64,000 nucleotides of DNA, from IMG/VR virus record IMGVR_UViG_3300027573_000022; one strand, 5' to 3'. This document shows, in pieces, positions 38,158 to 60,767 of this stretch. The notes beneath the pieces were generated by a model, which ran no database searches, had not been told where the DNA came from, and worked only from the letters and a program-made list of their open reading frames with translations. The position numbers and the translations under genes were made by a program. Position 1 is the stretch's first letter. Each line of letters begins with the position of its first letter. This DNA is from an uncultured virus (IMG/VR IMGVR_UViG_3300027573_000022). Taxonomy: Duplodnaviria; Heunggongvirae; Uroviricota; Caudoviricetes.

Positions 38158-39798
38158 CTAGCAGGTGATGACCGTCGCGCCGGTCGGGCCCGCACCGGAC
38201 GGGCAGACCGTGGAGGTCACCTGGTAGGACTCGATCCCGACGAACGCCAGGTTCTCGAACGTCTCGGCGAAGACCGAGTAGTCGTTCGTCTGGTTGAGCG
38301 TCGAGTCCCGCACGAGGCCGAGGTCCAGCGTTCCACCGTCGAGGAAGAGGAACGAACCCTCCGGGTAGAGGTACCAGACCACCGTGGTTGGGAAGCCGAG
38401 CATCGCGCCCGCGCTCTGCGCACCGAACTGCATACCCGCACCCGTCGGGGTGTCGAGGTAGAAGGTCGGCGTCACACCGCGTGAACGGAACCAGCTCGTG
38501 ATCATCTCATCGGTGATATAGCCCGCCTCGGGGAAGCCCGGGAACTGCTGACGAGCGATGTCCGCCCGCATCAGTTCCTTCGTCCACGACGGACCCGCCC
38601 ACCGGAACTGGCGGCTCTCGGTGATGCGGTGCCGGCTCTTGAAGCTGGCGAGCGCCTGGTCGATCTGCGGCAGCAGGGTGCGGGACGCACCGTACGTCGC
38701 CGCCGCCGTGATGGCCGTGGACGACGCGGCCAGCCGGTCCAGGAGCGCGGTCTCCGCGACCCGGGCGTGCTGCGCAAGCGACAGGGCCAGCCAGGTCTCG
38801 ACCTGCTCGGGGAACGTACGCGCCCCGAAGTTGCCGAAGATCAGATGGCGGTAGATCGCCTGGATGGTGACGGTCTGCTGCACGCCACACGTGACGCGGA
38901 GCGGAGCCTTCAGCGCCGTTGGCGGGTAGCCCGACGCATCCTGGGCGGCGGTGCGAATGCCGATGGCGTTCGCCAGGTCCGTGAGCCGCGGAGGTGTGAT
39001 GAACGTGATCGCACCGCGATCCGCACCGAACACTGGGAACATGTCCCGCACGGGACGATCAGCCCCGGACAGGTTCTGCAGCCCGTAGTACGGCTCGGCC
39101 GGGGCGCAGATGCCACCGGACGCGACCAGCGCCTGGGGATCCGCACCCTGCTCGAGTGCGGCGACCAGTGCGTCGACCTTCTCCTGGTTACCGGACGCCT
39201 CACCCTTCTTGAGCCAGCGCTCCTCGGGGAAGTCGGCCTTCACGGAGGCAACGATGACGCGGTCACCGTCGCCGGCCCGATCCACGCCACGGAAGTTGCC
39301 GCGCCGTGCGATGAACGCCTCGGCGACCGCGGTCATGTTCGGAAGCTCGGCGCCCGCCGGCGTGGCCGGGATGTCCGCGCCCGCCGTGATGACGTAGGGC
39401 TGGGCCGTCTTGGGAGTGGGCTCGGAACCCTCGGGAGCGTCGAGTCCGTTCGGACTCAGGCTCGCCGTGACCTCCTCGGGTGCGGGTTCCTCGGCCTCAG
39501 CCTCAGTGGCCTCAGCCTCGGGGGTCTCCTCGGCCGCGAGGGTCGTGCCCTTGACCTTGTCCTCGCTGGCGGCGACCTCGGAGTCGATCTCCTCGATCTG
39601 GGCCTTCAGCTCGGCACGGCGGGCGATCTCGTCGCGGACCTCGGTGAGCTCGGTGCGGAGTGCACCCAGCTCTTGGACGGACTCACTGGTGAGTTCGAGT
39701 TGGCGCTTCTCGTTGTAGCGAGTGGCCAGGTCGACCTCGAGGGTCGAGAGCTCTTCATCTGAGAACTCTGTGATGGGCTTGGGCACGGGCGTAGGCAT
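38158..39798 (-). CDS. Major capsid (hexamer-type) protein with an N-terminal scaffold-like region
   Basis: LVASGGICAP.EPYY, RTFPEQV, LDLGLVRDSTLN.TNDY.VF.E.FE; AAAGGAG RBS before ATG 39798. Confidence 0.85.
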   Translation of the reverse strand: MPTPVPKPITEFSDEELSTLEVDLATRYNEKRQLELTSESVQELGALRTELTEVRDEIARRAELKAQIEEIDSEVAASEDKVKGTTLAAEETPEAEATEAEAEEPAPEEVTASLSPNGLDAPEGSEPTPKTAQPYVITAGADIPATPAGAELPNMTAVAEAFIARRGNFRGVDRAGDGDRVIVASVKADFPEERWLKKGEASGNQEKVDALVAALEQGADPQALVASGGICAPAEPYYGLQNLSGADRPVRDMFPVFGADRGAITFITPPRLTDLANAIGIRTAAQDASGYPPTALKAPLRVTCGVQQTVTIQAIYRHLIFGNFGARTFPEQVETWLALSLAQHARVAETALLDRLAASSTAITAAATYGASRTLLPQIDQALASFKSRHRITESRQFRWAGPSWTKELMRADIARQQFPGFPEAGYITDEMITSWFRSRGVTPTFYLDTPTGAGMQFGAQSAGAMLGFPTTVVWYLYPEGSFLFLDGGTLDLGLVRDSTLNQTNDYSVFAETFENLAFVGIESYQVTSTVCPSGAGPTGATVITC

Positions 39799-39908
39799 GG
39801 TGCTCCTTTGGCACACGTTGACGCAGCGGATTCTTGAGTGGGTTACTCACCGCCGGCGGCTATGCCTCCCGTTGGTTCCTTACCCAGTGATCACCGTATC
39901 ACCCGTCG

Positions 39909-42607: not shown

Positions 42608-45070
42608 TTACTCCTCCTCACCTGAAGTGAGCGTGAAGGACTGCACAACGGCGCACAGGCAGCCGTTGTGATCACCCGGGTGGTAGTACTCGGTACCGAG
42701 CCAGGCGTCGTCGGGGTTCACCTCGAGTGCCGGGTCACTCCACGATGTGAACGAGAGCCCGTCGAGGTCGAGGTGCGGGTCGAAGCTGTTGCGCACGGCG
42801 GGTCCGTAGTCCCACTGCATACCCATCGTCTGCACACCCTGGTCCTCGAGGATGGTCTCGGTGAGGGTGCCGGTGCCGACGCCACCCGTCGGCACCGACG
42901 GGTCCTCGCCACCACCTCCACCCGCGATGCGAAGCACGTCCCGCACCAAACCCGCGGGCACACGCACGTCATCGAACTCACCGACGGTCGCCGCGCCCGC
43001 ACCCGAGTCGAACAGACGACGACGGGAGAAGGCTAGCAGCCCAGCCATGAGTGCACCGGTGGCGACGACACCCGCCTCATCGAAGTGATCGGCGTAGCGG
43101 TTCTCGATGTCGTCGTACAGGTCGGCGAACTCGATGCCGCGTTCCTCCGCGACGGATTGGGCGATGTCCCGCATGGCCGCGACCTGCGCGTCGGCGATCC
43201 ATCTCTGGGCCTTGGACCGGAAGGGAATCAGCGCGGGGGCGAGCAGGTCGTTGTCGCCCAGATCCTCGAGCCCGTCCTCGGGTAGGTCAAGCTCATCGTC
43301 TACGGCGAAGCCGAGTGCACGCACCTTCTCCCGGCCCATGTGACACGCTAGATCCTCGTTGGCTATCCCGTCACTCAGGTGCATGCCGAACTGATCGTGT
43401 CGTGCCTTGGTGCGGATCTTCGCGCCGGCACGCTCGAGTGCACGCTGCACGGCGGCGTCGCCCGCGATCCGCAACCGCTGCATGAGGTCTTGGTCGAGGC
43501 GGGCGAGGCGCGTGCCCAATCGTGCAAGGCGACGACCCGGTGCGGCGGAGGCCAGCATCGTCGGAGGTCCGGGGGTCGTCGTCGTCGCGGCCGGGTTGGG
43601 ACGATCGGCCGTGGCGGGAATCGCCTTGGCCGCATCGGACGGCTTGTCGGGATCCTCCATACCGCGCTCCTCAGCGGTCTTATCCTCGAACGGTAGTGCC
43701 GGTGGCCCACCCTCGGCCTCAGGCGCGGCAGGCTCGGGCACCTCGCCCGTGACGGCCATCTTGGCGTCCGCGAGCTTGAGCCCGACCCGCATCGCGTACT
43801 CCTTGCCGTCCGGCTTGTCCGTCTCGGGAAAGTCGGACTCCCTGCGGAGTGCCGCGTCGCTGATAACGATGCGGTCGTGCAGGTCCTTGGCGTCACCCGA
43901 GCGATCGGGCTTCACCACCAAACCGGCCGGGTCGTACCAGATGATGTACTTCTCGGGGTCCTTGACACCCGCGCGCTTAGCCGCCGGCTGCAGGTAGCCG
44001 ATCGTCAGCGCGTCACACACCAGCTCAATGAAGGGCTGCAGGTGTGCCTTGAACGTCTGCTCCTCGATCTGCCACGCACCCCAGTGACTGACCTGGCTGG
44101 TGCCCAGGAGAACCTCAGGTGGGAGGTCGATGCCGACGGCCATGTTCTGCAGCGCCGTCTCACGCTTCTCCTTGAAGCGGGCGTCCTGCTTGCGGTCGAG
44201 CGTCATGTGCTGAAGCTGATCGAGGGCGTCGCCCTCGCCGGTCACGATGATCGGCACGACCTCCGAGGCGTGGCCAAACTGCTCGAGCGGTGTGGTGAGT
44301 GCACCCTGGAAGGCCTCCATCGTTGGGGTTGCATCCACACCGTGCACGAGTTGTCCCTGTCCACGCCGCACGTCGTCCGCACCTCGGGCGGGGAGTAGCA
44401 GGGAGTTCGGGAACTTGAGGATGCCGGCGCCGGCGATGCGGCTTCGGGAGAGCGCCTTCTCAGCCTGGGTCATCAGGATCAGAAGTTCGGCGTCATCGAG
44501 CACGGTCATCACCGACGAGTCGGCGAGACCCGAGTACTGCGGGCTCTCGTTCCAGATGCGGGTGACGTACGCGGCCTCGGGAAGCGGCACCTCCACCAGA
44601 CCCGGGCCTACCCGACGGCCGAAGGAGCGGTCACCGATGCGGGCGACGAGCTCGTCGATGGAAAGGACGATCCAGTTCTGGGTCTTGTCCGGTTCCTCCC
44701 ACCCGACGAGGTTCGCCTCGCCGCAGATGAAGAGGTTCGCACCGAAGTTGCGCAGCAGGGACGCCTGCCCGCCGCGCTTCGACTTCAGGTTCTTCACCGC
44801 CTGCTTGATGGCCTCGTTCGACGTGGGCTGCGGCTCGGTGCCCGGGTCGTCGTCATCCTCCTCGGCCGCGATGAGCTTGATCTTGGAGAGGGCGTTCCCG
44901 ACGAACCGACCCGCGAAGTGAAGTGGACCCGAGACGCGGTAGTACGCCCACGCACGCTGCTGCCACGGCTGACGCAGAAGCTGACGCTCGATGAGCTGAG
45001 TCGTCGACTTGATGTTCAGCTCGGCGGCTGATGCAACCAGGGAACTGGGAAGCCGCGGACGAAGTGCCAC
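42608..45070 (-). CDS. Portal protein fused to a MuF-like C-terminal domain
   Basis: WQQRAWAYY...LHFA.....NALS, SR.AGAG.L, D.PPEVLLG...HWGAWQIEE; C-terminal W.YG...H..LDG...PGDHNGCLC. Confidence 0.8.
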   Translation of the reverse strand: MALRPRLPSSLVASAAELNIKSTTQLIERQLLRQPWQQRAWAYYRVSGPLHFAGRFVGNALSKIKLIAAEEDDDDPGTEPQPTSNEAIKQAVKNLKSKRGGQASLLRNFGANLFICGEANLVGWEEPDKTQNWIVLSIDELVARIGDRSFGRRVGPGLVEVPLPEAAYVTRIWNESPQYSGLADSSVMTVLDDAELLILMTQAEKALSRSRIAGAGILKFPNSLLLPARGADDVRRGQGQLVHGVDATPTMEAFQGALTTPLEQFGHASEVVPIIVTGEGDALDQLQHMTLDRKQDARFKEKRETALQNMAVGIDLPPEVLLGTSQVSHWGAWQIEEQTFKAHLQPFIELVCDALTIGYLQPAAKRAGVKDPEKYIIWYDPAGLVVKPDRSGDAKDLHDRIVISDAALRRESDFPETDKPDGKEYAMRVGLKLADAKMAVTGEVPEPAAPEAEGGPPALPFEDKTAEERGMEDPDKPSDAAKAIPATADRPNPAATTTTPGPPTMLASAAPGRRLARLGTRLARLDQDLMQRLRIAGDAAVQRALERAGAKIRTKARHDQFGMHLSDGIANEDLACHMGREKVRALGFAVDDELDLPEDGLEDLGDNDLLAPALIPFRSKAQRWIADAQVAAMRDIAQSVAEERGIEFADLYDDIENRYADHFDEAGVVATGALMAGLLAFSRRRLFDSGAGAATVGEFDDVRVPAGLVRDVLRIAGGGGGEDPSVPTGGVGTGTLTETILEDQGVQTMGMQWDYGPAVRNSFDPHLDLDGLSFTSWSDPALEVNPDDAWLGTEYYHPGDHNGCLCAVVQSFTLTSGEEE

Positions 45071-47949: not shown

Positions 47950-47999
47950 GGGTTGACTTCCTAGGGGTGAGGGTGGCTTGCTTGGACCTACGGGGTGGG

Positions 48000-48437
48000 C
48001 TAGACCGGAGGCTCGACGACGGGCGGCGTGTTCGCGATCACGGCATCCTTGAGGGTGCCACTCGAACCGCGAAGTGCGGCGGCTGCCTCGTTGAGCGCGG
48101 CCTGGACGGCCGGCTCCTGGGCAACCTGCGCGGCGAGCTCGTCGATCTTGTCGGCGAGACCCTCGATGAGGGTGACGGCCGACTGGTCGACCGTGGTGTT
48201 CTCCTCGACGGCGGCGGTCAGTTCGGTGAAGTCGATTGCCATTTGGTCCTCCAGGACGTTGACGGAATGTGCAAGTGAGAATGTTCCGAGGGTTAGTGCC
48301 GCGAGCTGCGCACGGAACGCCTGCAGCTCGGCAACCACGTCGGCACCGGGTGCCGCGTGGAAGTGGTAGTTGTAGTTCACGGTGAGGTTGGGACTGGGCA
48401 TGGGGGGCCAGACCTCCTCGGGCTGTATGTCGCTCAC
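48000..48437 (-). CDS. Hypothetical helical protein
   Basis: GGAGG RBS, GTGA coupling; Ala-rich helical composition. Confidence 0.6.
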   Translation of the reverse strand: MSDIQPEEVWPPMPSPNLTVNYNYHFHAAPGADVVAELQAFRAQLAALTLGTFSLAHSVNVLEDQMAIDFTELTAAVEENTTVDQSAVTLIEGLADKIDELAAQVAQEPAVQAALNEAAAALRGSSGTLKDAVIANTPPVVEPPV

Positions 48438-49126
48438 GGTGTACCTCCGTACCCGGTCTTGGGACCGGTGTACCCGGCCTCGTCGGGGAAGGCAAGCTCG
48501 GCGACCGCGGTGCGCAGCTGATCGGCGCGGGTGCGGGTCGTCTTGGCATCCTCACGCGCGGAGTGGGCGACCTGGTTGTCGGGGGTCTCCTCGGCGAACT
48601 GCCCGCCGGACCGCCGGGTGCGCGCCATCTCTAGCCTCTCTGACATACTCAATGACTGCTCCCTGTTCGCGTGATCCACGAGCGCCGCGATGGCATCAGC
48701 CTTCGAGTTGATGCCGCCGAACTTCGGACGAACCTCTGCAGGGTCCGGTCTGCTCGGGTACTGGGGGATCTTCATTCGATCGTTCGACGCCGTGTCTGCC
48801 TTCCAGTACTTGGTATAGCCCTTACCGATCGCGTAGTTCTTACCGGGTGCCATCTTCTGGTACTCACGCTCGGCTTGGTACACACGACCTAGACGCTCAC
48901 CGTCCTTGGACTTCACCTCGTAGACGGGCATCTCCCTGCCCTTGTGATCCGTGAGTGTGCTACGTGTGTAGTCGTTCAGCTCGGACGGGTCAAGAGCCTT
49001 GGCCTTGACATCGGAGACGGTAAGTGGCGCCTTCGTCTCTTCGCCGCCACTTCCACCTCCGCCCTCGGATGCAAACCGCCCGTTGTCGTCTCGCTCCTGG
49101 TCTTCGGCGGCGAGGGCGGTTACCAC
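48434..49126 (-). CDS. Putative head-packaged protein with an RDDNGRF tag
   Basis: GTG 49126 overlaps the terminase end, 7 nt after TAGGAT; QERDDNGRFASEGGGGS. Confidence 0.65.
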   Translation of the reverse strand: MVTALAAEDQERDDNGRFASEGGGGSGGEETKAPLTVSDVKAKALDPSELNDYTRSTLTDHKGREMPVYEVKSKDGERLGRVYQAEREYQKMAPGKNYAIGKGYTKYWKADTASNDRMKIPQYPSRPDPAEVRPKFGGINSKADAIAALVDHANREQSLSMSERLEMARTRRSGGQFAEETPDNQVAHSAREDAKTTRTRADQLRTAVAELAFPDEAGYTGPKTGYGGTP

Positions 49127-50481
49127 TTGTCGTATCCTAGCCCAGCGGGCAGGCTGCCGACGGGGACCGCGAGGCCGCCTCCGTGGTAGGTATCGGTGAT
49201 GAAGGTACACGCCCACACCAGAGCGTCGAGACGGTCGGGGCTGAAGTAGCCGTTCCCACGCTCACCCGGGACCCAGGTGCACATCTGATCCTCAAGTTCG
49301 GGGAAACTGCCTACGTGGGTAACGTGGCCCGGGCGCTCATAGAGGTAGGCAATGGGCTGCGCCCGCGCCTCCTTACCCTTGCTGGCCCAGACCGGATGCA
49401 CCGGCATCCAGCGGTAGGCGCGCTTGAGCGTCTCCTCGACGAGGTCACCGCCGTTGTTCCGCTCGGCCACGACCGCGTCGGCGCGGTAGCGCTTGTAGGC
49501 GCGAAGTACCTGCTTCGCCCACTGGGCGGGGGTACCCTTCATCGACAGGTCATCGATCACGTACAGCTTGTTCTCGTAGTCGAGACCGACGACGACGATT
49601 CCCGTCTCGTCCGCATCCTCACCCGATGTCACGGCCGGGTCGACGCCGACCACGACGCGACGCATGTCGGGCAACTCGGACACCGTCACACCGTCCTCGG
49701 AGAGGGACACGATGCGCTGGGTACGGTCACGGTCGATCCAGTCACGCAGCCACAGCGCACCCTCGACGTCCTCGAGGATCAGACCCTCGAGCTCTTGACG
49801 TCCAAGCTGGGTGTTTGCGTAGCGACGCAGCAGGTAGCGCAGGGTGGACTCGGGCAGGTTCGCCGCGTTGTCCGTGGTGCGTCCGCGTGTGACGATGGTG
49901 CGTGGGTCGGCGATGAGGTTCTTGAGCACGGGTAGCGGACGTGGCGTGGTGGTGACCGCGGCCTGCGGGTGGTCACCGAGGCGTAGACCCATGACGAGCA
50001 TGTCCCACGTCTCCTGTGGGTACCGGTGTGCGGCGAACTCCTCCACCCAGGCGAAGTGATGCTCAGGACCGCGCAGGCGATCGGGTTCGGTGGATGAGTA
50101 CGGGAAGTATGCACTCCCGTTTCGCAGCCACACCTGACCCGTGGAGCGGTTGTATCGCTTGATCTCGCGCGGGGGCGTCACGGCCAGGATGCCCGACGGC
50201 CCCTCGATGCAGACGTCGCGGACCACACCGTGCGTCGGGCCGACGACGGCGATGCGGGTGTTGGGAACCTTCGCCCGCTTCTTCGCCTCCTCCGACGCGC
50301 TTCGCGTCTTGCCCGTGCCGCGACCGGCCAGGTACACCCACACGTCGCAGTCCTCGGTGGGAAAGCGCTGCTCCTCGCGTGACCACACGTTCCAGTCGTA
50401 CCTGAGTCGATGCAGAAGCTGCGCCTTACGTTCACCGTCCCAGGAGCGCCAGTCAACCTCATCGAGGATTAGGTTACTCAC
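49120..50481 (-). CDS. terL: Terminase large subunit
   Basis: LAGRGTGKTR, LRGPE...WVEE, TTTPR, VGVDPA, DETGI, ERNNGG, SPDRLDALVW. Confidence 0.93.
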   Translation of the reverse strand: MSNLILDEVDWRSWDGERKAQLLHRLRYDWNVWSREEQRFPTEDCDVWVYLAGRGTGKTRSASEEAKKRAKVPNTRIAVVGPTHGVVRDVCIEGPSGILAVTPPREIKRYNRSTGQVWLRNGSAYFPYSSTEPDRLRGPEHHFAWVEEFAAHRYPQETWDMLVMGLRLGDHPQAAVTTTPRPLPVLKNLIADPRTIVTRGRTTDNAANLPESTLRYLLRRYANTQLGRQELEGLILEDVEGALWLRDWIDRDRTQRIVSLSEDGVTVSELPDMRRVVVGVDPAVTSGEDADETGIVVVGLDYENKLYVIDDLSMKGTPAQWAKQVLRAYKRYRADAVVAERNNGGDLVEETLKRAYRWMPVHPVWASKGKEARAQPIAYLYERPGHVTHVGSFPELEDQMCTWVPGERGNGYFSPDRLDALVWACTFITDTYHGGGLAVPVGSLPAGLGYDKW

Positions 50482-50773
50482 TCGACACCTCGGCCGGGTT
50501 GGGTGGTGGATTCAGTGGCTGCGGGATCGCGTCACGTGCGGCGGTTCGCGCATCCACCCACTTCTGAAGTTCGACCGGATCGTAGATCTCGAACTCGGGA
50601 TTGTCCACACGGTGTTCGCGAATGCCCTGCGCGTTCTCACCGAACGTGGTGGGCTCGGTCCCGGGTACGACCTCGTCCTCAGTGAGGAAGGTCTCGAACG
50701 GGCTCGTGAAGAACTCGTCCTCGACCTCCTCGATCGTCTTCTCTTGCTTCTTGCGCTTCTTCCTAGGCGGCAC
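50474..50773 (-). CDS. Hypothetical protein upstream of terL
   Basis: Basic N-terminus followed by an acidic region; overlaps the terL start; start uncertain. Confidence 0.5.
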   Translation of the reverse strand: MPPRKKRKKQEKTIEEVEDEFFTSPFETFLTEDEVVPGTEPTTFGENAQGIREHRVDNPEFEIYDPVELQKWVDARTAARDAIPQPLNPPPNPAEVSSE

Positions 50774-53700
50774 GAACTTCCTCCAGCAGTCTCCGCAGCA
50801 TAGCCGCCGCGCCGACGACGGTGCCACCCTGCAATCCTAGTGCTTCCTGCACATCAAGCACGTCGGCCTGAATGGCAACGAGCTTCATCGGGGCGACCCA
50901 CTGTCCATTCTCCTGGAACACCTCACCGGTCTTCACGAGGATCGTGCCACGGGGGAGCAGAAGTTCCTGCTCACCCGGGTGGGCGTTGCCCGGCTTCCAC
51001 GCGGCGGGCGTACCCGCGGGAACCTCGATGCGCATCTGCAACCCGTGTGAGCCCCATCCACCACCGATGCTGGTGGACTGGTAGCCCTGGTCCCGCATGA
51101 TGCTGCCCACGGGCATCTCACGGATCTTCTGCTCGTAGGAGCCCAGGCCACCACGGTACGTGACGACGGCCTCGGGCGTGCGCTGCCGCATCAGTGCGGA
51201 GTCCAGCGACTGGATCATCGAGTTGCCGGTGGTGACCTTCGATAGGTCGCCCTTGGCGCTTCGCAGCGCGCCGTTCACGGTGCTGTAGTGACCGTCACCG
51301 TACTTGTACAGCGCGCTCCACTCACTCGCGGTGTACCGCGGCTTGCCACCAGCGGTGCCGAACGCCTTGTTACCCCACGCCTCGACCGCGCTGTGACCCT
51401 GCGCGCGTGGCACGGTCGCGTTGTTCGTAGGCTGGTCACCGAGGAACACACCACCCTGCGGAATCGGCGTGATCTGCGGAGCGATGGTCTTACCGGTCGC
51501 CGTCGTCTGCTGGGCGAGCGCGACCTTCTGCTCATCGCTGACGACGACCTTCGACCATCCGCTGGTCTGGTAGTTCTTCTCACCGAAGGTGTACACGACC
51601 CGAGTCGTCTCTTGCCCGTGTGGGTTGATGCCCTTGAGGATCGTAAGCACACCATCGTGCATCACGTAGCGAGAGTAGCCGGACACCGCGATGTCGGGAG
51701 CCTTGGACGTCCCGTACTTGGCACTCTCGATCGCCTTGCGGTCCGCATCGGTGAGCGGGCCGTTCACGTGCTTCACGAACTTGGCGTTCCCGATGTTCTG
51801 GTTCAGCAGGGCGAGGCGCTTGTACTCACGGGACCCGGCCTTCAGACTCTTACCGAACGCGTCCTTCGTCTGGTACGACCCGGGCTTAGGCATCACGCCC
51901 GCGCCCTCCTTCGATACCTGCTGCCCGACGACCGGTACCGGAGACGGTGCGGGCTGCGGCGCGGGCGTAGGCGGGGGCGTGAACTTGAGAAAATCCTCAG
52001 ATGACATCATTTTCGTGTTGCCGAGCGCCTGGTAGTCCACGTTCATCTGCATGGGAGGTGGCGCCTGCCAGATCTTCGTCGCGCCGTTACGGTCCAGCTC
52101 GCTCAACTTCTCGACCACGGCACCCGCGGCGTTGAGGGTAAGCACGGTATTTCCAACCTGGAACTTCGAGGTCGGAAAGCCGTTCGCATCCTTCCCGTGC
52201 CACTCTGTTGTCGCCGCGCCCTTCTTTACCTGGGCGATGAGCTGGCGCGCTTCACTTGTGGGCTTCACCGCGTAGGTTGGAAACTTGCCCACACCCGTCT
52301 TCGGGTTCCAGTCCTCAACGATGCCACTCTTGGGATCGCCGTACACCTTGCCCCCGAGTGCGTTGGTGGTGAAGGACTGAGATGCTGTGGCCTGCATCAG
52401 GTTCAGCTTGTCGAGGTTGTCGAGTGGGTTGGGATCATTCGGATCAAGGCCGGCGTTGGCCCATACCTGGCCCGAGGCGACGCCGTACTGCAGGGCGGTC
52501 AAGGCAATGACATCCTGCGTGTGCAACTCACTGGAGTGGATGAGTGTATCCATCGTCTTGATGAACTGCTCGTCATTCATCGTACCGCCGGTCGCGAGTG
52601 TTGCTGCGCCGCTGTGATGCGTACCCAGCGTCTCTAGTGCAGATGCTACATCGGGTGCGTAGAGATCTAGGCTCGCCGCCTGGGTCTCGACCGCATTCTT
52701 GTAGTTCGTCCACGGTGAAACGTCGTGCGCATCAAGCTTCGCCTGCAGGTCACCGGCTGCGTTTGAGGTGGTGTTGAGTGCGGCCTGCGCCTGGGAGACA
52801 CCCGCCTGCATCGGGGGAAGGACTGCGCCCATCGGGTAGATGCTGTGCTGCAGGTCGAAGAGAACGGACTGCACGTCGAGGTTGGGCACGATCGTCGCAC
52901 CGCCGAGCTGGTGGTGCACGATGTCGTTCGCCTGGCCGCTGGTGATCTTGCCGTCCACCAGGGCGTTGTGTACGGCGGCCCAGCCCTGCGTGGTGAGCGC
53001 CCCACCCTTCAGCGCCTCGACGACGCTCTTGTCGGTGGTGTACTCGGTCGCGACCGTGGTGTACGCGGCGGACGCGGCCTTTGCGAGTGGGCCCGGGACC
53101 TTGTCGTCACCGACGCCCGGAGGCTTGGCGCCGAAGGTAGGAGGCATGTTACCCGCGTCGGTGGCGATCTCGGCGGCCTTGGCGAGTGCCTCGTTGAAGC
53201 TACCTACCTTGTCGTAGTCGTCGAATCCGGCGGCGAGGATCTCGTAGACGGCGACGCGCTCCGACGCGGTCAACTTGTGCTGATCGCTGATGACGGCCGC
53301 GAGGGTCTGCGGGGTAAGCTTTCCCTGTTCGTACGCGGTGAGCATCTTCAACGTCGCATTGCCGTTGAACTTCGACTCACCCAACACCGCAGCGGCGATG
53401 ACGACGGGTGGAATGCCCGAGGAGGGGTCGAGCAACGCGGCGTACCCGTCCTGCAGGAAGCCGTACTTACCCGAGACCGCAACACTCAGCTTCGTGATGT
53501 CACTGGCGAGTTCCTGCGCCTCGGCCGAGGGTGGGGCGAAGGTCACACCCGTGGAGGGGAAGTTCTGTCCCGCATCCTGCGCGGGCTCGGATGCGAAGGC
53601 GAGTTGCTCGAGCGTCTGCTCGACGCTTGTGTAGGTATCCTCGTAGCCCTGCACGTTCTGGTGGTTGAGGATCGATGCCACCTGGTCGTAGTCAATGAGG

Positions 53701-56700
53701 TCGGACTGCAGGGCACCGTGCAGCATGCTCCACGCGACCGGGCTGATCATCGCACCATGCTTGGCACTCTCGAGCGCGTCGGTCAAGATCTTGTTGCCGG
53801 CGGAGTTGGCGATCAGATGATCGTAGGTCAACGCCGTCAAGCCGCCCGCGGCTTTCGTGGGGCCCGCGTAGAAGTCCTTGGGAGCGGGAGGGGTGAAGTC
53901 GATGGGGCCGACGGATTGCAGCTCGAGGGGGGTCTGCCCGGGAAGACCCGCGCCCGCGTCGAACTCGGGTGGGATCGGGGTCTCGGCGTTCGCCTGCGCC
54001 TCGAGGACGATGCTCGACGGTGTCAAGCCGGCCTCAAGCTGCTCGACGAAGGCGTCGGCGTTACTGGCGATGTAACCCTCGGGTGCCTCCTGCCCGCCGG
54101 CCAGCTGGTACGCGAGTAGGCCCGCGACCTCATCATCGGTGAGGATGCCGCCCATGCGCATCTCATCGATGGTGTCCCACTGCTCAAGGTTGAACATTGC
54201 CTCGCCCGTCCACGCCGCCGCGACCGCAAGCGGCTCGGGTGCGGGGGCGTCGGGGTCGTTGGCGAGGTCCCACAACTTCTGGAACCCACCCGCGGTACCC
54301 ACGGGAATCGCGCCGAAGGTCATCGCCTCCTGCACCTGTTCGAAGAAGGCCATGTTGCCCGGGTCGTCGGTGACGTAGAAGCTCGCGTTGGGATACCCGC
54401 CCGCAGCACCCGGGCCCAGCTCGTTGTGTGTGGCCTGGGCGAACTCCTCCAGCTCAGTCCACGTGTTCAGCCCGGATGCGGCCATGTCGATGAGGACGGT
54501 CGGATCGGTAGGCGGGTACCGGTCCGCGAGGATGGACATGCCCTCGACGACGGTAAGGGAGCCGTTGACGTACATCTCCTTGATCGTCGCCCACTCCTTG
54601 GGCGTGAACTCACGCTCACCCAGCAACACCTGCGCGATCGGCACGGTGCCTAGGTTGGTCGAGAGAACGGAGTACGCGTCATTGACGCTCGAGCCCGCGC
54701 CGAACTTATCGTCGAGGTAGCCCGTGAACGCCGTGAAGGATCCGAGCGCGGCGGCCTCGGGTGACGTACCCGTGGGCATGATGCTCGGCTCGGGCGTGCC
54801 GGGGAACTCGGCGGGCACGCTGGGATCCCAGGGCGCGGGAGGGAAGTGTCCCATGTCGCCGTTCATGACGCTCTCGGCCGCGTCGGGGAGCGCCTGCACA
54901 AGTGTGCCGCCAAAGTTGGCGAGCCACTCACCCGCCTCGAGGGTACTGCCGCCGAAGTACTGGTCGGCGAACATCGCGATCACGCGGTTCTCGCTGATCT
55001 CGCCGTCGGCGAGCATCACGGCGACCTGGTTCCACTGGTCTTGGTTGAACGTCGCCTCGTCGTTGACGACCGCCGCGATCGCGAGGGGTGTGAAGAGGGC
55101 GTCGGCGTCCTCGCTAACGAGCTGCCCGTACCCACCGCCGGCGGCCGTGCTGATCGTCCCGTTGTCCTCGGACACGATCAGCAGGGAGTACACACTCTCC
55201 CCGGCCATCGCGTAGGTGTGCGCGCTTAGGGTGGGCGTCTGCGCCTCGGACGGAACGACCGTCGCGGTGATGATGCCGGAGGCCGGGCCGTTGAGCACGC
55301 CCGTCGCGTAGGGTGGAGCGTCGGGCGTGAGGGACGCAAGAACGTTGGAGAGGTTGGTGGAGAAGTACTGCGCGGAGGTAATCGCACCGAGGTCGACACC
55401 GGCGAGCTTGAACTGCTCACCCACGAGAGTGGATGCGGCCTCGAGGGAGAGAGTGCCGTCCGCTACCTGGGCCGCGACGAACTCCCACGTGTTGGCCGAG
55501 AAAGACGCCTGCCCGGTCGCGACGGCGGCAAGCTCACCCTGCGGCGCCCCGTACGCCAGCAGGGTCATCAGTCCCGCGGCGGCCGCGGGTGGAATGAGGC
55601 CCGCCTTCGAGTCAGCGAGTACACCCTGGATGAACGCGGTCTTGTCCGTCGCGTAGGAGAGGGTCTTCTCACTCGCGTCGGGAACCGAGGGCGTGGGAGA
55701 CGCCGCCAGTGCCGCTGCCTCGGCGGCCGCCGCGTACGACGCGTCCGCAACCTTGCCCGCGAGTGTGTCGGCCATCTGCTCGGTGGACGTCGCCTCCTGC
55801 ACCGCGGCGTGAGGCTCGAGGGTGGTGGAGAGCTTGCCGTGCGGCACAAGCTCGTACAGGTGGCCCTTCCCGTCCGGGTTGGGCGTGACGACGAGCTCCT
55901 TGAACTTGCTGCCCGGGTACGCGTACACCGTCTGCTTGCCGTAGTTGACCGCGGAGGCGACGGACTTCGCACCCTCGGGTGTGTTCTTCAACTTGTTGAG
56001 GGCGTACGCGACGGCCTGACTCTTGGTGGGGCCACTGTTGAGCAGGCTCTTGATCGGGCCCGCGCCCGGGTTGGCCGCAGCTTGCTGGGCGGCTGCATCC
56101 GCGTCCGCCGTCTGGATCGCGGGGGTCTGGCCGGACTCGTCGACCGCGCCGGGTGTGTCACAGGGCACGAACTGCCCACCGTCCGGGGTGCCCGCGGGCA
56201 TGTGACACGCCGCCGCGACGAGGGCGATGATGCGCTGGGCACGCGCGGGCGAGGTGCGAAGCGCGAAGGGTTCCTCGAGGAGCTTGGTAACGAGGGATGG
56301 GATCTGCTCCTGGCGCTCACGCAGGGTGTCCGCCCACTTCTGAGATGTAAGGTCGCTGATGCCCGCGTCACGCCAGCTCGCCCGCACGTCATCGAGGTCA
56401 ATGAGTGCGGCGCGCATAAGTGAGGCCGCCGCGGCCTTGTCCGTCATCTGACCGTACATGGCCTTGCCCTGCTCGGACGTTCGCATACTCTGGGGTTCAA
56501 CCCACGGCTTGCCCGGTGCGAAGGAGTCCTTGGGATCGCCCATGGCGCGGTAGGCCATCGCACCCCCGGACTCGATGCGAACGGGGATGCCGTCGGGTGT
56601 GACGAGCGTGTTGTCGGCGTTGAGTCCGTGCACGTCCCAGTGGGAGAGCAGCGCGTCCACCCCGAAGTTCTTCGCGGCCTCAGCCTGCACCTCGGGATGT

Positions 56701-57620
56701 TGGTTCCACCACGAGGCCGACCGTTGCTCGAGGCCCTCGATCTTCTCGGACAGGGTGAACGACTTCGTGCCCGCCTCGTCGAGGAGCACGAAGGTGTTGG
56801 GGAAGGGAACGCCCGCCGCTCTGTAGACGGAGCCGGAGGCGATTTCGTTCTGTGCGTGGTCGAGGCTCTTGGTCGGCTTGAGCAGGTACGTCTTACCGGT
56901 CTCCGGATCCCTGTGCCAGGTGCCACCCTGGGAGCCGAGCGGCCCCGGAACCTTGGGCCAGGACCGCACCTCATCCGCGGAGCGGGCGGGTGCACCCGTG
57001 GCCTCCTGCGTCGCCTGATCCCCGTCGTCGTCACCCGAGGTGAACTTGCCGTCCGACCCGCGCGGGTGATCCTCCTCGTTGAAGAGTTCCTGGATCTCAC
57101 GGGCGCGTGCACGCTGGGCGGACAGGGGGACGGGAACACCCTCATCCATGAGGAGGGGAACGGCGATCGTCACGGCCCGCGTGGAGGGAGGGATCTGCTC
57201 GAGGGAACGGCGCATCGCCGTGGGGCGTGGGTACTCGCCCAGGGTGACGTGGGGCTCGTACGTGGGGAAGCGGTCGGGAGGGAGGGTCACGCCGCGTCGG
57301 GTGAGACGCGCGAGGAAGTCGTCACGCACACTTGTAAGAAGGGTTCGCTCGGGCTCCGGGATCAGGCTGACGACGCAGGCATCGGGATCCTCGGGAGGGC
57401 CGAACACCCGGGTCGTCGGGGCGACCTCCGTGTGGATGAACGAGCCGTCCTGGCTGGGGAAGACGGTGCGGGACGCCTCCTCCGCGATGATCTTGGCGTC
57501 CGCGGGTGTGGCGTCGTCCCCCACGTAGAGGAGTGTAACGTGAGGTGGGTAGTCGAGGGTATCCCCGTCGTAGGCGTCGGTGATGGGCCCGGACACGGGC
57601 ATGACGACGCACAGGGCCAT
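50763..57620 (-). CDS. Giant multi-domain protein: 2H phosphoesterase, PI3/4K- or HipA-like kinase, helical repeats, VIP2-like ADP-ribosyltransferase
   Basis: HVTL twice; YLLK...NE...DALL.HWD..G...DN...RIESGG; YRG...STS...EQE.LLPRG. Confidence 0.85.
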   Translation of the reverse strand: MALCVVMPVSGPITDAYDGDTLDYPPHVTLLYVGDDATPADAKIIAEEASRTVFPSQDGSFIHTEVAPTTRVFGPPEDPDACVVSLIPEPERTLLTSVRDDFLARLTRRGVTLPPDRFPTYEPHVTLGEYPRPTAMRRSLEQIPPSTRAVTIAVPLLMDEGVPVPLSAQRARAREIQELFNEEDHPRGSDGKFTSGDDDGDQATQEATGAPARSADEVRSWPKVPGPLGSQGGTWHRDPETGKTYLLKPTKSLDHAQNEIASGSVYRAAGVPFPNTFVLLDEAGTKSFTLSEKIEGLEQRSASWWNQHPEVQAEAAKNFGVDALLSHWDVHGLNADNTLVTPDGIPVRIESGGAMAYRAMGDPKDSFAPGKPWVEPQSMRTSEQGKAMYGQMTDKAAAASLMRAALIDLDDVRASWRDAGISDLTSQKWADTLRERQEQIPSLVTKLLEEPFALRTSPARAQRIIALVAAACHMPAGTPDGGQFVPCDTPGAVDESGQTPAIQTADADAAAQQAAANPGAGPIKSLLNSGPTKSQAVAYALNKLKNTPEGAKSVASAVNYGKQTVYAYPGSKFKELVVTPNPDGKGHLYELVPHGKLSTTLEPHAAVQEATSTEQMADTLAGKVADASYAAAAEAAALAASPTPSVPDASEKTLSYATDKTAFIQGVLADSKAGLIPPAAAAGLMTLLAYGAPQGELAAVATGQASFSANTWEFVAAQVADGTLSLEAASTLVGEQFKLAGVDLGAITSAQYFSTNLSNVLASLTPDAPPYATGVLNGPASGIITATVVPSEAQTPTLSAHTYAMAGESVYSLLIVSEDNGTISTAAGGGYGQLVSEDADALFTPLAIAAVVNDEATFNQDQWNQVAVMLADGEISENRVIAMFADQYFGGSTLEAGEWLANFGGTLVQALPDAAESVMNGDMGHFPPAPWDPSVPAEFPGTPEPSIMPTGTSPEAAALGSFTAFTGYLDDKFGAGSSVNDAYSVLSTNLGTVPIAQVLLGEREFTPKEWATIKEMYVNGSLTVVEGMSILADRYPPTDPTVLIDMAASGLNTWTELEEFAQATHNELGPGAAGGYPNASFYVTDDPGNMAFFEQVQEAMTFGAIPVGTAGGFQKLWDLANDPDAPAPEPLAVAAAWTGEAMFNLEQWDTIDEMRMGGILTDDEVAGLLAYQLAGGQEAPEGYIASNADAFVEQLEAGLTPSSIVLEAQANAETPIPPEFDAGAGLPGQTPLELQSVGPIDFTPPAPKDFYAGPTKAAGGLTALTYDHLIANSAGNKILTDALESAKHGAMISPVAWSMLHGALQSDLIDYDQVASILNHQNVQGYEDTYTSVEQTLEQLAFASEPAQDAGQNFPSTGVTFAPPSAEAQELASDITKLSVAVSGKYGFLQDGYAALLDPSSGIPPVVIAAAVLGESKFNGNATLKMLTAYEQGKLTPQTLAAVISDQHKLTASERVAVYEILAAGFDDYDKVGSFNEALAKAAEIATDAGNMPPTFGAKPPGVGDDKVPGPLAKAASAAYTTVATEYTTDKSVVEALKGGALTTQGWAAVHNALVDGKITSGQANDIVHHQLGGATIVPNLDVQSVLFDLQHSIYPMGAVLPPMQAGVSQAQAALNTTSNAAGDLQAKLDAHDVSPWTNYKNAVETQAASLDLYAPDVASALETLGTHHSGAATLATGGTMNDEQFIKTMDTLIHSSELHTQDVIALTALQYGVASGQVWANAGLDPNDPNPLDNLDKLNLMQATASQSFTTNALGGKVYGDPKSGIVEDWNPKTGVGKFPTYAVKPTSEARQLIAQVKKGAATTEWHGKDANGFPTSKFQVGNTVLTLNAAGAVVEKLSELDRNGATKIWQAPPPMQMNVDYQALGNTKMMSSEDFLKFTPPPTPAPQPAPSPVPVVGQQVSKEGAGVMPKPGSYQTKDAFGKSLKAGSREYKRLALLNQNIGNAKFVKHVNGPLTDADRKAIESAKYGTSKAPDIAVSGYSRYVMHDGVLTILKGINPHGQETTRVVYTFGEKNYQTSGWSKVVVSDEQKVALAQQTTATGKTIAPQITPIPQGGVFLGDQPTNNATVPRAQGHSAVEAWGNKAFGTAGGKPRYTASEWSALYKYGDGHYSTVNGALRSAKGDLSKVTTGNSMIQSLDSALMRQRTPEAVVTYRGGLGSYEQKIREMPVGSIMRDQGYQSTSIGGGWGSHGLQMRIEVPAGTPAAWKPGNAHPGEQELLLPRGTILVKTGEVFQENGQWVAPMKLVAIQADVLDVQEALGLQGGTVVGAAAMLRRLLEEVRAA

Positions 57621-57629
57621 GGGACGATC

Positions 57630-58643
57630 CTAATCGTCGGTGATGATCCTGAAGACGTCCGGGTGGTAGCGCTCGAGGGTCATCAGGTCGGCCTCGTAAC
57701 GGTCCGGGTCTGGGCGGGGAGGGTCGGTGGCCCGGGTGTACTTGGCGAGTGCTGTGTTCAGGGAGAAGTAGTCCTCGGCCTCGGGAGGTTGGGCGACGCG
57801 GGGGAAGAAGACGTGTGTGATGTAGCGAATCGCACGCTCGTAGGGCCAGCTTGAGTTGCGCAGGTTCACCGCGCAGCTAAAGGCCGCCTCGTCGCGGCGC
57901 CCGGGTGGAACGTGATCGGGTGGGTCGTGCACCGGGAAGTTCGTGAGGTCACCGTGGGACGTCGCGTCGTCGGGTGCGAGGTCGGTGAGGGTGGAGCGAA
58001 GGTAGAGGAGGGTGTCGAGGGTAAAGGGAGCGGAGGAGGCGTCGTACGACACCTCCGTGTACGTGCCCTCACCGTCTGGGGGACGGATGACGGAGGGTGG
58101 GGTGACGACGTACGCGCCCCGCAGCTGAAGGTCCGCGCCCGGGATCCGTAGGGTTCGGAGGTGCTCACTGGATGTATCACTTGCGAGCGTAAGTGATACG
58201 TAAACGTGTAGGCCACCCGAGGGAGTCGTCACCGCGCGGCGAATGAAGTTGGATGCACGGAGGCGGTCAACGATCTCCATCACGCGCGGGTAGGTGGAGA
58301 TGGGAGAGCCGATGGGCGGGGGGTCAACGTCGAGGACGGCGAGTCGGGAGACGGGACCGGTCTCCACGCCAACGTTCGCGTTGAGGTGGGTGAGTGAGTC
58401 GGCGGCGTCGCTCACGGCCATGAGTTGGGCAACGTCACCCCGGGTGAAGAGTGTCTGAAAGGTCCGGGTGCCGGGTGGGGGGAGGGGACCCGCGAAGCTG
58501 GCACCCGCGAGGAGGAGCTCTTGGCGCGCCTCGGGAGGGAGGCGGGTACTGGCCGCGCCCGGGAGTAGGGGGCGCTTGCCACCCGGGCGCAGGGCGACGG
58601 TGTGCCAGCGCTCCGCGACGTGGAGGAGGAGCTCGGACTTCAC
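57630..58643 (-). CDS. Bifunctional DNA primase/polymerase (Prim-Pol)
   Basis: PGGKRP, NVGV.TG...VLDVD, TPSGGLHVY, YVVTPPS. Confidence 0.85.
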   Translation of the reverse strand: MKSELLLHVAERWHTVALRPGGKRPLLPGAASTRLPPEARQELLLAGASFAGPLPPPGTRTFQTLFTRGDVAQLMAVSDAADSLTHLNANVGVETGPVSRLAVLDVDPPPIGSPISTYPRVMEIVDRLRASNFIRRAVTTPSGGLHVYVSLTLASDTSSEHLRTLRIPGADLQLRGAYVVTPPSVIRPPDGEGTYTEVSYDASSAPFTLDTLLYLRSTLTDLAPDDATSHGDLTNFPVHDPPDHVPPGRRDEAAFSCAVNLRNSSWPYERAIRYITHVFFPRVAQPPEAEDYFSLNTALAKYTRATDPPRPDPDRYEADLMTLERYHPDVFRIITDD

Positions 58644-58886: not shown

Positions 58887-60731
58887 TTACTCCTCGGGGT
58901 TGAAGTGATCGTGAACGGTGGGAACGCGACCGGTCTGGGTGAAGTGCTGCACGGCACGGGTCCAGAGCTCGCGTTCCTCCTCGCGCCGCGCAGCCTCCTG
59001 GGTGTCGAGGTCGGTGTAGTAGAGCTCGGCGAGCTCGTCCCACTTGAGGAGTGCGAGGTTGATGTACTCTTGAACACCCCGACGCTGCTCATCGGTGAAG
59101 ACGTCCTCGGGGATCGGACTAATCGCGTCGGGGTGAATGACCGCGCAGCGTCGGGTGGAAAGCCTAACGGCCTCGTTGGTGTCCGTAGAGCGTATGACGG
59201 GGCGTCGTCCCACCGGAAAGCGATCCTTGGGAATGTGACGAAGCATGGCTTCCTGCGTGAAGGTGGGCAAGCCAGCCTCATCCTCACCGCCGTGAGGCAC
59301 GCGCCAGGCAAGGTACGCCTCGTAGATCTGGGTGACCGGGGTCTCGGTGGACGACTCGGTGAGGCAGTCGCGAATGAAGAAGCCGAGTGGGATCTCCCGC
59401 AGAAGGTGTGCCTCCGTCTGACGTTGCACAGTCTTAGGTGCGATGAGGACCCGGGTTCCTCGCTGGGTTGCCTTGAGGTAGCGGATGGCTTGCTCCTCGT
59501 GCCAGCGGCAGATGTCTGCGGCGTGGAGGCGAAGAAGGCGGTTCTTGAAGTCGGGATCGGTCTCGTGGTCTTGGAGTGTGTTCGGCATCTCGATCACGTA
59601 GAGGCGACGTTGAGCGGCGCGGGTGTCGCCCTGCCCCTTGAAGCCGATGGGATGGTTGGTGGCGACCCAGGGAGTCACGTTGGAGTAGATGCGTTCTTCG
59701 TTTCCGTACATACGGCGAAAGGTGACTTGCTCACCCTCGGTTACCGCCTTCATGACCTCCTCGTTGAGGAGTGCGTTGGCGGGAAGTTCCTCCGCGTTCG
59801 TCGCGGCACGCTTTCCTACGACGGCGGGCATGTAGGTGCGGTGCTCAGACTCGTTTCGCCCGGGTGCACTGGCGAAGAACCGCGCATCGACCTCGGCGCC
59901 GTACTCACCGATCGCCTGAATGGAGACCTTCGTGAGGGTGGACTTGCCGTTGGCGCCGTGGCCGTACAGCTGGATGAGCTGGGAATCCTTGGTGTCACGA
60001 CCGAGAAGGTTGGTCCCGAGCTTGAGGCTGATGAAGTCACGTACCTCGGGGTCGGGAATGAAACGCTCGAGGAGGTCGGTGGTGAACATCGGAATGGGAC
60101 GTTGAGGGTCGGTGGAGGATCGAAGGTGGCCCGTGGTGGCGCGAAGGTAGTGGTGGGGTTGGGGAGGGCCGAGGTCTGTGGGGCCGTCCGGGGAGAGAGC
60201 AACGAGGGCATCGAGGTAGGCGACCTGGGTGGGATCGTCGTGAACGGAGAAGTACTCATCGGCCGAGCCGGTGACGTAGATCTGCTGGTGATGCGCGGCG
60301 AGTTGGGTGACGAGAAAGGGTTCGGCGAAGTTCTTGATGATCTGACTTATGGAGGAAACGAACCGCGTTCGGCCCGAGGCGGTGCGGGCTACATCGATAA
60401 GGCTGGTGGCCGTTCCACCGTCGCCTCGGGCCAAATGCTCACGTGCTTCACGTAGGAGAAGCTCGGGAAGGTGCTGGGTAATCGTCGTCTGGAGGGCCTC
60501 GGGATCGAGGCGCCAAATGCCGTCGTCGTGGCAGTGCCAGACCTGCACCGTGTTCTTGGAGTCAACGAAGCGGCGGAGTCGATGGCCGTAGGCGTAGGCA
60601 ACGCGGGTGGCGTGTGCGCGCTCTGTGAGGAGGTCGGGGTTGGTGTAGGCGTCGAACCACCAGGTGCCTTGGAGGGCAAGTGGAGAGGGAAAGGCATCGA
60701 GGGTGGTAGGTCGGAAGTTGGACGAGGGCAT
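58887..60731 (-). CDS. D5/P4-like SF3 primase-associated helicase
   Basis: LYGHGANGKST, EE...MKAVTEGE...RRMY, ATNH, RRL.VI; ATG 60731 follows a promoter. Confidence 0.88.
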   Translation of the reverse strand: MPSSNFRPTTLDAFPSPLALQGTWWFDAYTNPDLLTERAHATRVAYAYGHRLRRFVDSKNTVQVWHCHDDGIWRLDPEALQTTITQHLPELLLREAREHLARGDGGTATSLIDVARTASGRTRFVSSISQIIKNFAEPFLVTQLAAHHQQIYVTGSADEYFSVHDDPTQVAYLDALVALSPDGPTDLGPPQPHHYLRATTGHLRSSTDPQRPIPMFTTDLLERFIPDPEVRDFISLKLGTNLLGRDTKDSQLIQLYGHGANGKSTLTKVSIQAIGEYGAEVDARFFASAPGRNESEHRTYMPAVVGKRAATNAEELPANALLNEEVMKAVTEGEQVTFRRMYGNEERIYSNVTPWVATNHPIGFKGQGDTRAAQRRLYVIEMPNTLQDHETDPDFKNRLLRLHAADICRWHEEQAIRYLKATQRGTRVLIAPKTVQRQTEAHLLREIPLGFFIRDCLTESSTETPVTQIYEAYLAWRVPHGGEDEAGLPTFTQEAMLRHIPKDRFPVGRRPVIRSTDTNEAVRLSTRRCAVIHPDAISPIPEDVFTDEQRRGVQEYINLALLKWDELAELYYTDLDTQEAARREEERELWTRAVQHFTQTGRVPTVHDHFNPEE

Positions 60732-60737
60732 GGAGTG

Positions 60738-60767
60738 ATCGTAGCCCGTGGTAGGATGATGTGTCAA
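60738..60767 (-). promoter_or_regulatory. Promoter TTGACA-18-TACGAT for a leaderless helicase mRNA
   Basis: Read directly; -10 box 6 nt from ATG 60731. Confidence 0.7.

Follow-up and report, generated by a model that had tools for sequence, protein, structure and literature searches.

The gene analyzed here lies in the IMG/VR virus record IMGVR_UViG_3300027573_000022, a 64,000-nt stretch of phage DNA that is called the window below; its G+C content is 61-68%, and the minus strand carries nearly all genes. An earlier annotation made from the letters alone (the sequence-only reading) had placed a giant gene encoding a 2285-aa protein at 50763..57620 on the minus strand, and the open reading frame (ORF) list and the translation located it exactly there. 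The encoded protein is designated P0001. Its ATG start lies 9 nt past the TAG stop codon of a PrimPol gene, and an AGGA is found about 10 nt before the ATG. In a viral-contig scan, residues 1-600 of P0001 were 100% identical on three other viral contigs, and one further relative, which carries only the kinase, showed 55% identity. The P0001 sequence cluster comprises 5 members on 8 contigs, the largest of 99,326 bp, which puts the phage genome at 99 kb or more. The following features were assigned to the gene and its product.

50763..57620, minus strand: giant gene for P0001, 2285 aa, ATG start (ORF list and translation)
57192..57575, minus strand: probable 2H phosphoesterase domain, residues 16-143 (Pfam PF13563, 2_5_RNA_ligase2)
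57042..57068, minus strand: linker motif HPRGSDGKF immediately N-terminal to the kinase-fold module, residues 185-193 (pattern count)
56271..56975, minus strand: atypical kinase-fold module, residues 216-450 (AlphaFold2 model, structure searches and residue census)
56160..56207, minus strand: conserved stretch CHMPAGTPDGGQFVPC bordering the kinase-fold module on its C-terminal side, residues 472-487
52245..55622, minus strand: eight degenerate acidic repeats of ~145 aa, residues 667-1792 (dot plot and seed profile)
51396..52244, minus strand: basic region preceding the ADP-ribosyltransferase (ART), residues 1793-2075, isoelectric point (pI) 9.6, conserved with the relatives P0002 and P0003
50943..51383, minus strand: VIP2/C3-type ART, residues 2080-2226 (Pfam PF03496, ADPrib_exo_Tox)

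Three enzyme domains had been called by the sequence-only reading; the ART and the kinase fold proved firm, and the 2H phosphoesterase stands as probable, with a score under the Pfam cut-off. The ART assignment is practically certain. ADPrib_exo_Tox matched at E 2.6e-21 with 76.3 bits, passing the gathering cut-off of 23.4, and the R-STS-ExE signature on which the call had been based was located at R2156 (51153-51155, in a YRG from residue 2155), STS 2182-2184 (51069-51077) and EQE 2217-2219 (50964-50972). PHROG 3895, an ART-toxin family, was matched at E 1.9e-16, and the Alt-like PHROG 26651 weakly at E 9e-4. The sequence search against the PDB returned the Staphylococcus aureus C3-type ART 1ojq first (E 8.9e-16), followed by C3 and Vip2 chains, and the profile search with the three full-length relatives returned Vip2 (E 1.8e-12), followed by CdtA, iota Ia and C3. 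In the 1ojq alignment, R2156, S2182-T-S and E2217-Q-E fell on the catalytic motifs, and the tripeptide of 1ojq is QQE, with Q opposite E2217. The ExE motif goes with arginine-directed ARTs such as VIP2, iota and Alt, and judged by its sequence the P0001 ART is probably arginine-directed and of the VIP2/Alt type. A word-based homologue search with the C-terminal 536 aa against targets of 294-938 aa found none at E ≤ 0.001, a search limited by length that gives no proof of absence.

Residues 216-450 are assigned to a kinase fold with high confidence, on the basis of a predicted structure. The motifs present are a G-loop GPLGSQGG, K248, E259, D322, W328-D329, D336-N337 and R348-I-E350-S-G-G (RIESGG, 348-353, 56562-56579). 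Domain-wise structure prediction had been proposed with the sequence-only reading as a check, and the AlphaFold2 model of this module, built from alignment A1 of the window segment and 25 shorter homologues, reached a mean predicted local distance difference test score (pLDDT) of 85.7 and a predicted template modelling score of 0.79, with a protein-kinase-like fold that keeps the helical C-terminal part. Searching the PDB with Foldseek placed Helicobacter pylori CtkA first (E 1.9e-5, template modelling score ~0.5, probability 1.00), followed by PI4KIIα, actin-fragmin kinase and PI3Ks. VIA-align, which is independent of Foldseek, gave CtkA at Z 15.9 over 210 aa at 3.4 Å and CotH and MavQ at 14.3 each, then HipA at 12.4, actin-fragmin kinase at 11.9, Fam20 at 11.7 and PI4KIIα at 11.5. 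The suggestion of a PI3/4K- or HipA-like kinase was thus right at the level of the fold. At the sequence level, residues 175-480 had no Pfam match at E ≤ 1, including the HipA_C and PI3_PI4_kinase families, neither the whole of P0001 nor the kinase segment had an NCBIfam match, and the kinase alignment profile found none among PDB sequences at E ≤ 1. P0004 alone, as a whole protein, matched HipA_C, HipA_2 and APH, and no single P0004 stretch passed alone.

The conservation of the kinase motifs was evaluated by a residue census over 181 aligned domain copies from 151 proteins. The consensus residue was kept at Gly229 in 171 copies, Lys248 in 172, Glu259 in 173, Asp322 in 176, Asp329 in 173, Asn337 in 176 and Arg348 in 172. 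The ATP-binding Lys, the helix-C Glu and the catalytic-loop Asp and Asn, with roles assigned by motif order, are all present in P0001. At the metal-binding Asp, the equivalent of the DFG aspartate, P0001 carries Glu350, as had been noticed for the RIESGG motif. This position holds Asp in 154 of the 181 copies, Glu in 20, Asn in 4, Ser in 1 and a gap in 2. Among the copies with Glu are those of the closest relatives, P0002, P0003 and P0005-P0016, which argues for a conserved trait of a subclade and not for decay.

Both borders of the kinase module carry short motifs. The HPRGSDGKF linker motif was counted with the loose pattern [HQEA][PA]R-x(2-4)-G-x-[FWY], which covers [HQ]PRxxxGxF-type motifs. 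This pattern was present in 22 of the 151 kinase-module proteins, with 26 occurrences observed vs. 10 in one shuffle, and 10 of the 26 lay 10-70 aa upstream of a kinase module. Motifs of this type might flag boundaries between modules, or else sites of processing or docking. The stricter form [HQ]PR-x3-G-[KR]-F recurs among proteins P0002-P0147, and a similar H-x-P-x-G-x-x-x-G-G-Q-F stretch is found after the kinase module at residues 472-487 of P0001, where all residues of the conserved stretch are invariant in 3/3 full-length relatives.

The N-terminal domain is likely a 2H phosphoesterase, as judged from its motifs and from its relatives. The two H-x-T/S-x motifs expected of the internally duplicated domain of the 2H superfamily are present: the pair of HVTL motifs that had been reported was confirmed at residues 27-30 (57531-57542) and 124-127 (57240-57251), 97 residues apart, and H27-V-T29 and H124-V-T126 are invariant in 3/3 full-length relatives (P0001-P0003). 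The homologous region of P0002 scored 31.1 bits to PF13563, above the cut-off, and P0012, another protein with 2H and kinase, scored 42.6 bits; P0003 is named 2'-5' RNA ligase by one source. A sequence search of the PDB with P0001 residues 1-477 gave none at E ≤ 10. In the word-based homologue search, the 2H region (targets of 96-307 aa) likewise found none at E ≤ 0.001, with the same limit of length and no proof of absence.

The full architecture of P0001 is shared by only two other proteins among 5.8 billion clustered proteins, P0002 (2707 aa) and P0003 (2786 aa). Their identity to P0001 is 42-46% over the first ~600 residues and ~31% over the last ~530; the middle diverges, the overall identity is 29-35%, and no catalytic residue of any of the three enzymes differs among P0001-P0003. 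Outside the enzymes, a small domain at about residues 520-600 is conserved with P0002 and P0003. BLASTP alignments with P0002 and P0003 over P0001 residues 1752-2279, which contain the basic region, showed ~31% identity; this basic region had no Pfam match and no usable ESM Atlas match.

About half of P0001 is taken up by the eight acidic repeats, which the sequence-only reading did not mention. In the dot plot, the best 35-residue window scored 67, vs. a mean of 35.8, a standard deviation of 4.7 and a maximum of 49 in 30 shuffles, and nine diagonals reached 40 vs. at most 2 in the shuffles. The repeat region has a pI of 4.1, with 131 D/E vs. 39 K/R and a net charge of about -92. A model of one repeat unit, with the eight units as the alignment, showed a four-helix core at residues 10-74 with pLDDT ~80 and a disordered end tail of ~40 residues below pLDDT 50 (overall pLDDT 61.4), and the picture that this model suggests is one of helical beads on disordered linkers. 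Foldseek found no PDB match for the unit model at E ≤ 0.001 (best E 1.3), a Pfam search at E ≤ 10 with each repeat unit, residues 481-666 and the region before the ART gave two chance-level rows only, and the ESM Atlas search with the repeat region gave weak leads, RsaA_NTD and DUF4214, at a score of 0.86, below the usable level. The repeat profile found none at E < 1e-3 in P0002, P0003 or the other 148 proteins. Since no repeats were detected in P0002 and P0003, the repeat part seems to evolve fast.

The array raises the question of whether P0001 is mainly structural, serving as an inner-capsid body, ejection conduit or length ruler with the repeats as its core and the enzymes as accessories. 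A regular array of helical beads and linkers that fills half of the protein would fit such a role, as would the finding that no tape-measure-sized gene was recognised in the window. It is countered by the pattern of conservation, in which the repeat profile finds no match in the two relatives and the enzyme domains and their catalytic residues are kept, and by the position of the gene outside any tail module; moreover, the genome is at least 99 kb long and only 64 kb of it is in the window, which leaves room for tail genes elsewhere. We therefore give a mainly structural role very little credence indeed. A tape-measure reading of P0001 had been considered and was rejected on gene position and on the lack of conservation of the repeats.

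The kinase module is widespread. An exhaustive phmmer search of 1.84 billion cluster representatives found 3445 at E ≤ 0.001 and 1630 at E ≤ 1e-10. The module occurs in actinobacterial and enterobacterial phages and may stand anywhere along its carrier protein; the carriers reach 7004 aa, and some hold several copies. P0004 (3416 aa) carries five kinase-module stretches and an ART, and P0051 is the protein of 7004 aa. For the domain fusions, 60 other carriers from the 150 listed were scanned with Pfam at E ≤ 1e-5, namely 18 first, plus 42 of the 68 remaining proteins of 600-1700 aa in id order. The following counts were obtained.

ART: 15 of 60 carriers
NUDIX: 6 of 60 carriers
Zeta toxin: 6 of 60 carriers
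Phage_Mu_F: 5 of 60 carriers
Prohead protease S78: 3 of 60 carriers
2H: 2 of 60 carriers
no Pfam match: 28 of 60 carriers

The domain order MuF, kinase, ART was found in three carriers. P0022 and P0024 have a prohead protease S78 domain at the N-terminus and a ferritin-like domain after it, which is unusual in a head protein. Among viral proteins, the top structural match of the kinase model was a 1201-aa protein named HK97 portal, followed by Gordonia phage proteins and ART-named proteins. The position of the carrier gene was compared in 5 annotated phages. In Sixama and Phendrix it follows the portal gene directly and stands ahead of the capsid gene, the carriers being gp73 and gp75 in Gordonia phage Sixama and gp66 in Phendrix. 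In DSL-LC01 it is flanked by the portal gene and the protease/capsid genes, and in Mecenats66 it lies a few genes upstream of the terminase, like the window gene; in Pseudomonas phage Jeremy, the stretch around the carrier gene holds no packaging gene. In the literature searches, no publication dealing with this phage kinase group came up.

In the window, the giant gene is surrounded by replication and packaging genes, of which the following were used as context.

58887-60767: primase-helicase, upstream of PrimPol
57630..58643, minus strand: PrimPol, directly upstream of the giant gene (Pfam Prim-Pol, E 3.4e-14)
50474..50827, minus strand: 117-aa ORF between the giant gene and terL (ORF list; GTG start at 50827)
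49120..50481, minus strand: large terminase, terL (Pfam Terminase_6N, E 6.2e-21; Terminase_6C, E 1.7e-17)
42608..45070, minus strand: portal protein (PHROG 776, E 2.5e-107)
38158..39816, minus strand: major head protein (PHROG 777, E 1.2e-72)

The order in the direction of transcription is primase-helicase, PrimPol, giant gene, 117-aa ORF, terL, a 260-aa ORF, class II ribonucleotide reductase, WhiB, portal, a 779-aa head protein and the major head protein, after which come the adaptor, sugar-modifying genes and a replication block. The statement that the gene sits upstream of terL thus holds, with both genes on the same strand and one small ORF between them. As called from the GTG at 50827, this 117-aa ORF overlaps the 3′-end of the giant gene by 65 nt; it had no Pfam, PHROG or NCBIfam match, and from its position alone, directly upstream of terL, it is a possible small terminase. 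The 779-aa head protein matched portal and head-maturation-protease PHROGs, and an NCBIfam search with this ORF found no match. The major head protein shared 44-46% identity, along ~76-78% of its length, with its counterparts in Actinomycetia phage DSL-LC01 and in the Arthrobacter phages Mimi and Racecar; with the capsid proteins of the Gordonia phages GMA2, Sixama and Phendrix, the identity was 36-43%. These capsid-protein identities indicate that the window derives from an uncultivated large actinophage. Among the virus records compared, the nearest was a 42,951-bp fragment without the giant gene.

Several further observations were made in the window. The usual pairing of terminase and portal is broken up here, as terL is separated from the portal gene by the class II ribonucleotide reductase and the WhiB regulator (45164-48555). 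A glycosyltransferase gene and two nucleotide-sugar epimerase genes adjoin the head-tail adaptor gene, and a nucleotidyltransferase gene lies further on (22802-25970 and 5817-7424), a set that suggests sugar modification of virion proteins or DNA. Gene orientation switches at ~62.7 kb, with minus-strand genes up to 62683 and a plus-strand peptide deformylase gene from 62726, and the GC skew climbs to +0.33 at 60-62 kb and drops to -0.22 at 62-64 kb; a replication origin or a divergent promoter region may lie here. Genes for a C5 cytosine methylase, dUTPase, dCMP deaminase and thymidylate synthase (2742-4376, 4524-4898 and 15859-17572) suggest heavy nucleotide-pool or DNA-modification activity. 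A DUF932 gene is located at 550-1542.

With moderate confidence, we read P0001 as a phage polyvalent effector in which a probable 2H phosphoesterase, an atypical kinase, acidic repeats, a basic region and an ART are combined in one polypeptide. What is shown here is the identity of the domains and the preservation of their catalytic residues; beyond that, we infer the following scheme, in which packaging and injection are held with similar or slightly lower confidence. Expression of P0001 would accompany that of the packaging genes; the protein would then be taken up into the capsid and enter the host cell along with the DNA. T4 Alt modifies RNA polymerase, and the T7 kinase modifies host factors; in the same manner, the ART and the kinase of P0001 would covalently modify host proteins. 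The 2H module would hydrolyse 2',3'-cyclic or 2'-5' phosphodiester substrates, with RNA ends, oligoadenylate-type or cyclic-nucleotide immune signals and cyclic ADP-ribose derivatives as possible targets, and the repeat array might act as a flexible spacer or packing element. Packaging is backed indirectly by the MuF and protease fusions of other carriers, by the structural match to a portal-named protein, by the positions of the carrier genes and by the place of the giant gene, one small ORF ahead of terL on the same strand.

Several findings weigh against this reading. The match of 2_5_RNA_ligase2 to P0001 (E 2.9e-5, 24.6 bits) lies under the Pfam cut-off of 27, the PDB profile search with the three full-length relatives returned ART chains only and no 2H chain, and hhalign of the three-relative profile against Escherichia coli ThpR aligned the first HxT motif alone, at a non-significant E of 0.13. 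The Glu in the metal site may alter or weaken the kinase chemistry. Neither Phage_Mu_F (PF04233) nor portal or other head-targeting domains were found in P0001 by Pfam at E ≤ 1 or by NCBIfam. With 28 of the 60 carriers lacking any Pfam domain, the fusion statistics describe a minority. The ribonucleotide reductase and WhiB genes between terL and the portal gene mean that the head module here is not compact, and PrimPol and the primase-helicase upstream, with a gap of 9 nt, mean that the giant gene could belong to a middle operon and not be late.

The last point bears on the reading that P0001 is not packaged at all, is synthesised only once infection is under way and takes over the host from within the cell, in the manner of T4 ModA/ModB and the T7 gp0.7 kinase. 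Such an enzyme would be co-transcribed with the upstream replication genes and active only in the producing cell. Besides the start of P0001 immediately after the PrimPol stop and downstream of the primase-helicase gene, the lack of a MuF or portal domain agrees with this, and a promoter and terminator scan gave no signal separating the giant gene from the upstream genes. However, the kinase module is elsewhere fused to MuF, to prohead protease or to a portal-named protein, related phages have the carrier gene between the portal and capsid genes, and a size of 2285 aa with a multi-effector build is typical of the injected class as it is set out in the parts of PMC5512222 drawn on here. We consider a takeover enzyme unlikely, although it deserves to be kept in mind.

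P0001 could also be considered a toxin directed at other bacteria or serving exclusion, comparable to the MuF polymorphic toxins that temperate phages carry, and not an aid to infection by the phage itself. A toxin-type ART at the C-terminus after a long repeat region recalls the order of polymorphic toxins, and PMC5576092 reports MuF polymorphic toxins in which the C-terminal toxin is variable. However, P0001 has no MuF domain, and its enzyme domains are spread along the protein and not confined to the C-terminus. Furthermore, Pfam scans of the window ORFs gave no Macro or ADP-ribosylglycohydrolase family, no immunity-type family adjoins the gene, and a scan of ORFs, which was not exhaustive, revealed neither an integrase nor a lysogeny gene. 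A competition toxin is accordingly very improbable.

A further possibility, distinctly improbable in our estimate, concerns the kinase-fold module, which would be a nucleotide- or ADP-ribose-directed transferase and not a protein kinase, forming one injected cassette with the 2H domain and the ART. Such a cassette would rewire or destroy NAD+-derived and cyclic-nucleotide immune signals at entry, and the acidic repeat array would be a DNA-like leader or decoy. This proposal is drawn from the repeated joining of the kinase module to NAD+- or ADP-ribose-handling domains (ART 15, NUDIX 6 and 2H 2 of 60) from its place in a family of at least 3445 cluster representatives that matched no curated model and no solved-structure sequence, and from the clade-specific Glu in the metal site of the P0001 module.

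The polyvalent-effector reading of P0001 touches a class of proteins that has been predicted computationally and has seen hardly any bench experiments. With its conserved catalytic residues and clear module borders, P0001 would be a convenient test case for packaging, for cutting into modules and for targets. The kinase-fold module merits a family description of its own, being very common in phage giant proteins and confidently modelled, with no Pfam, NCBIfam or PDB-sequence match, and the assignment of its substrate would annotate thousands of phage genes.

Among known systems, the phage anti-CBASS (cyclic-oligonucleotide-based anti-phage signalling system) phosphodiesterase Acb1 has a 2H fold, according to the portion of PMC9117128 drawn on here. 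The sequence-only reading had likened the N-terminal domain to this enzyme; the link is one of probable fold class only, and the PDB sequence and profile searches provided no homology, returning no 2H chain from a set in which Acb1 chains were not confirmed. An anti-CBASS role is thus one option among several. The kinase module matches CtkA, Bacillus cereus CotH, Legionella pneumophila MavQ, HipA, actin-fragmin kinase and PI4KIIα in fold (Z 11.5-15.9 over 200-239 residues), and like the CtkA/CotH/MavQ/HipA group it has the catalytic set of Lys, Glu, Asp and Asn. It differs from the CtkA/CotH/HipA-type structures in its identity of only 9-14%, without a sequence-level match, and in the change of the metal-site Asp to Glu.

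The ART links P0001 to two kinds of phage protein. In the MuF-VIP2 fusions of actinophages and Pamexvirus, including a Microbacterium phage protein named "ADP-ribosyltransferase domain and MuF-like fusion protein" and AXL1 gp16 (PMC9206674, in the part used here), the ART is 30-42% identical to that of P0001 by tblastn and, as in P0001, stands at the C-terminus of a head-region protein; these fusions are much shorter and begin with MuF, whereas P0001 has 2H, kinase and repeats in its place. T4 Alt and P0001 both carry a phage ART of the R-S-ExE type. Alt is a single-enzyme protein with proven packaging, known experimentally according to the passages of PMC9503650 and PMC9206674 relied on here, whereas P0001 is multi-enzyme and its packaging is inferred.

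The closest comparison is with the polyvalent proteins, which in the parts of Iyer et al. 2017 (PMC5512222) drawn on here are multi-domain proteins of phages and conjugative elements with predicted delivery together with DNA; the ART is their commonest protein-modifying domain, and kinases and 2H phosphoesterases have dedicated sections. Polyvalent-type ARTs and 2H domains are held to be probably head-packaged and injected in the corresponding part of Iyer et al. 2022 (PMC9503650). The packaged multi-effector proposed by the sequence-only reading, whose three domain calls were upheld at the strengths given above, is therefore not new as an idea, as these two papers, in the parts used, already state it as the polyvalent-protein hypothesis. 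In the limits of what was drawn from PMC5512222, P0001 differs from polyvalent proteins in having no MuF, portal or metallopeptidase domain, and its eight acidic repeats are not among the features described there. The kinase group of that paper, in the same sections, is described as missing its entire C-terminal subdomain and comes mainly from Verrucomicrobia-Chlamydia and Bacteroidetes (pro)phages; by this description it is set apart from the P0001 kinase module, which keeps the helical C-terminal part and occurs in actinobacterial and enterobacterial phages, and the two may thus be different. Like the polyvalent proteins of the sections cited, P0001 is a large phage protein with several conflict-type enzyme domains, its ART, kinase and 2H are recurrent there, and its gene stands beside packaging genes, the action predicted there being injection with the DNA. 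As for the link to the virion or to packaging, terL lies one small ORF downstream and replication genes lie directly upstream. The mark of the class is at least two distinct effector or catalytic domains in one polypeptide; P0001 joins a 2H, a kinase-fold and an ART module in a single ORF, in a phage with terL, portal and capsid genes, and very likely belongs to the polyvalent proteins.

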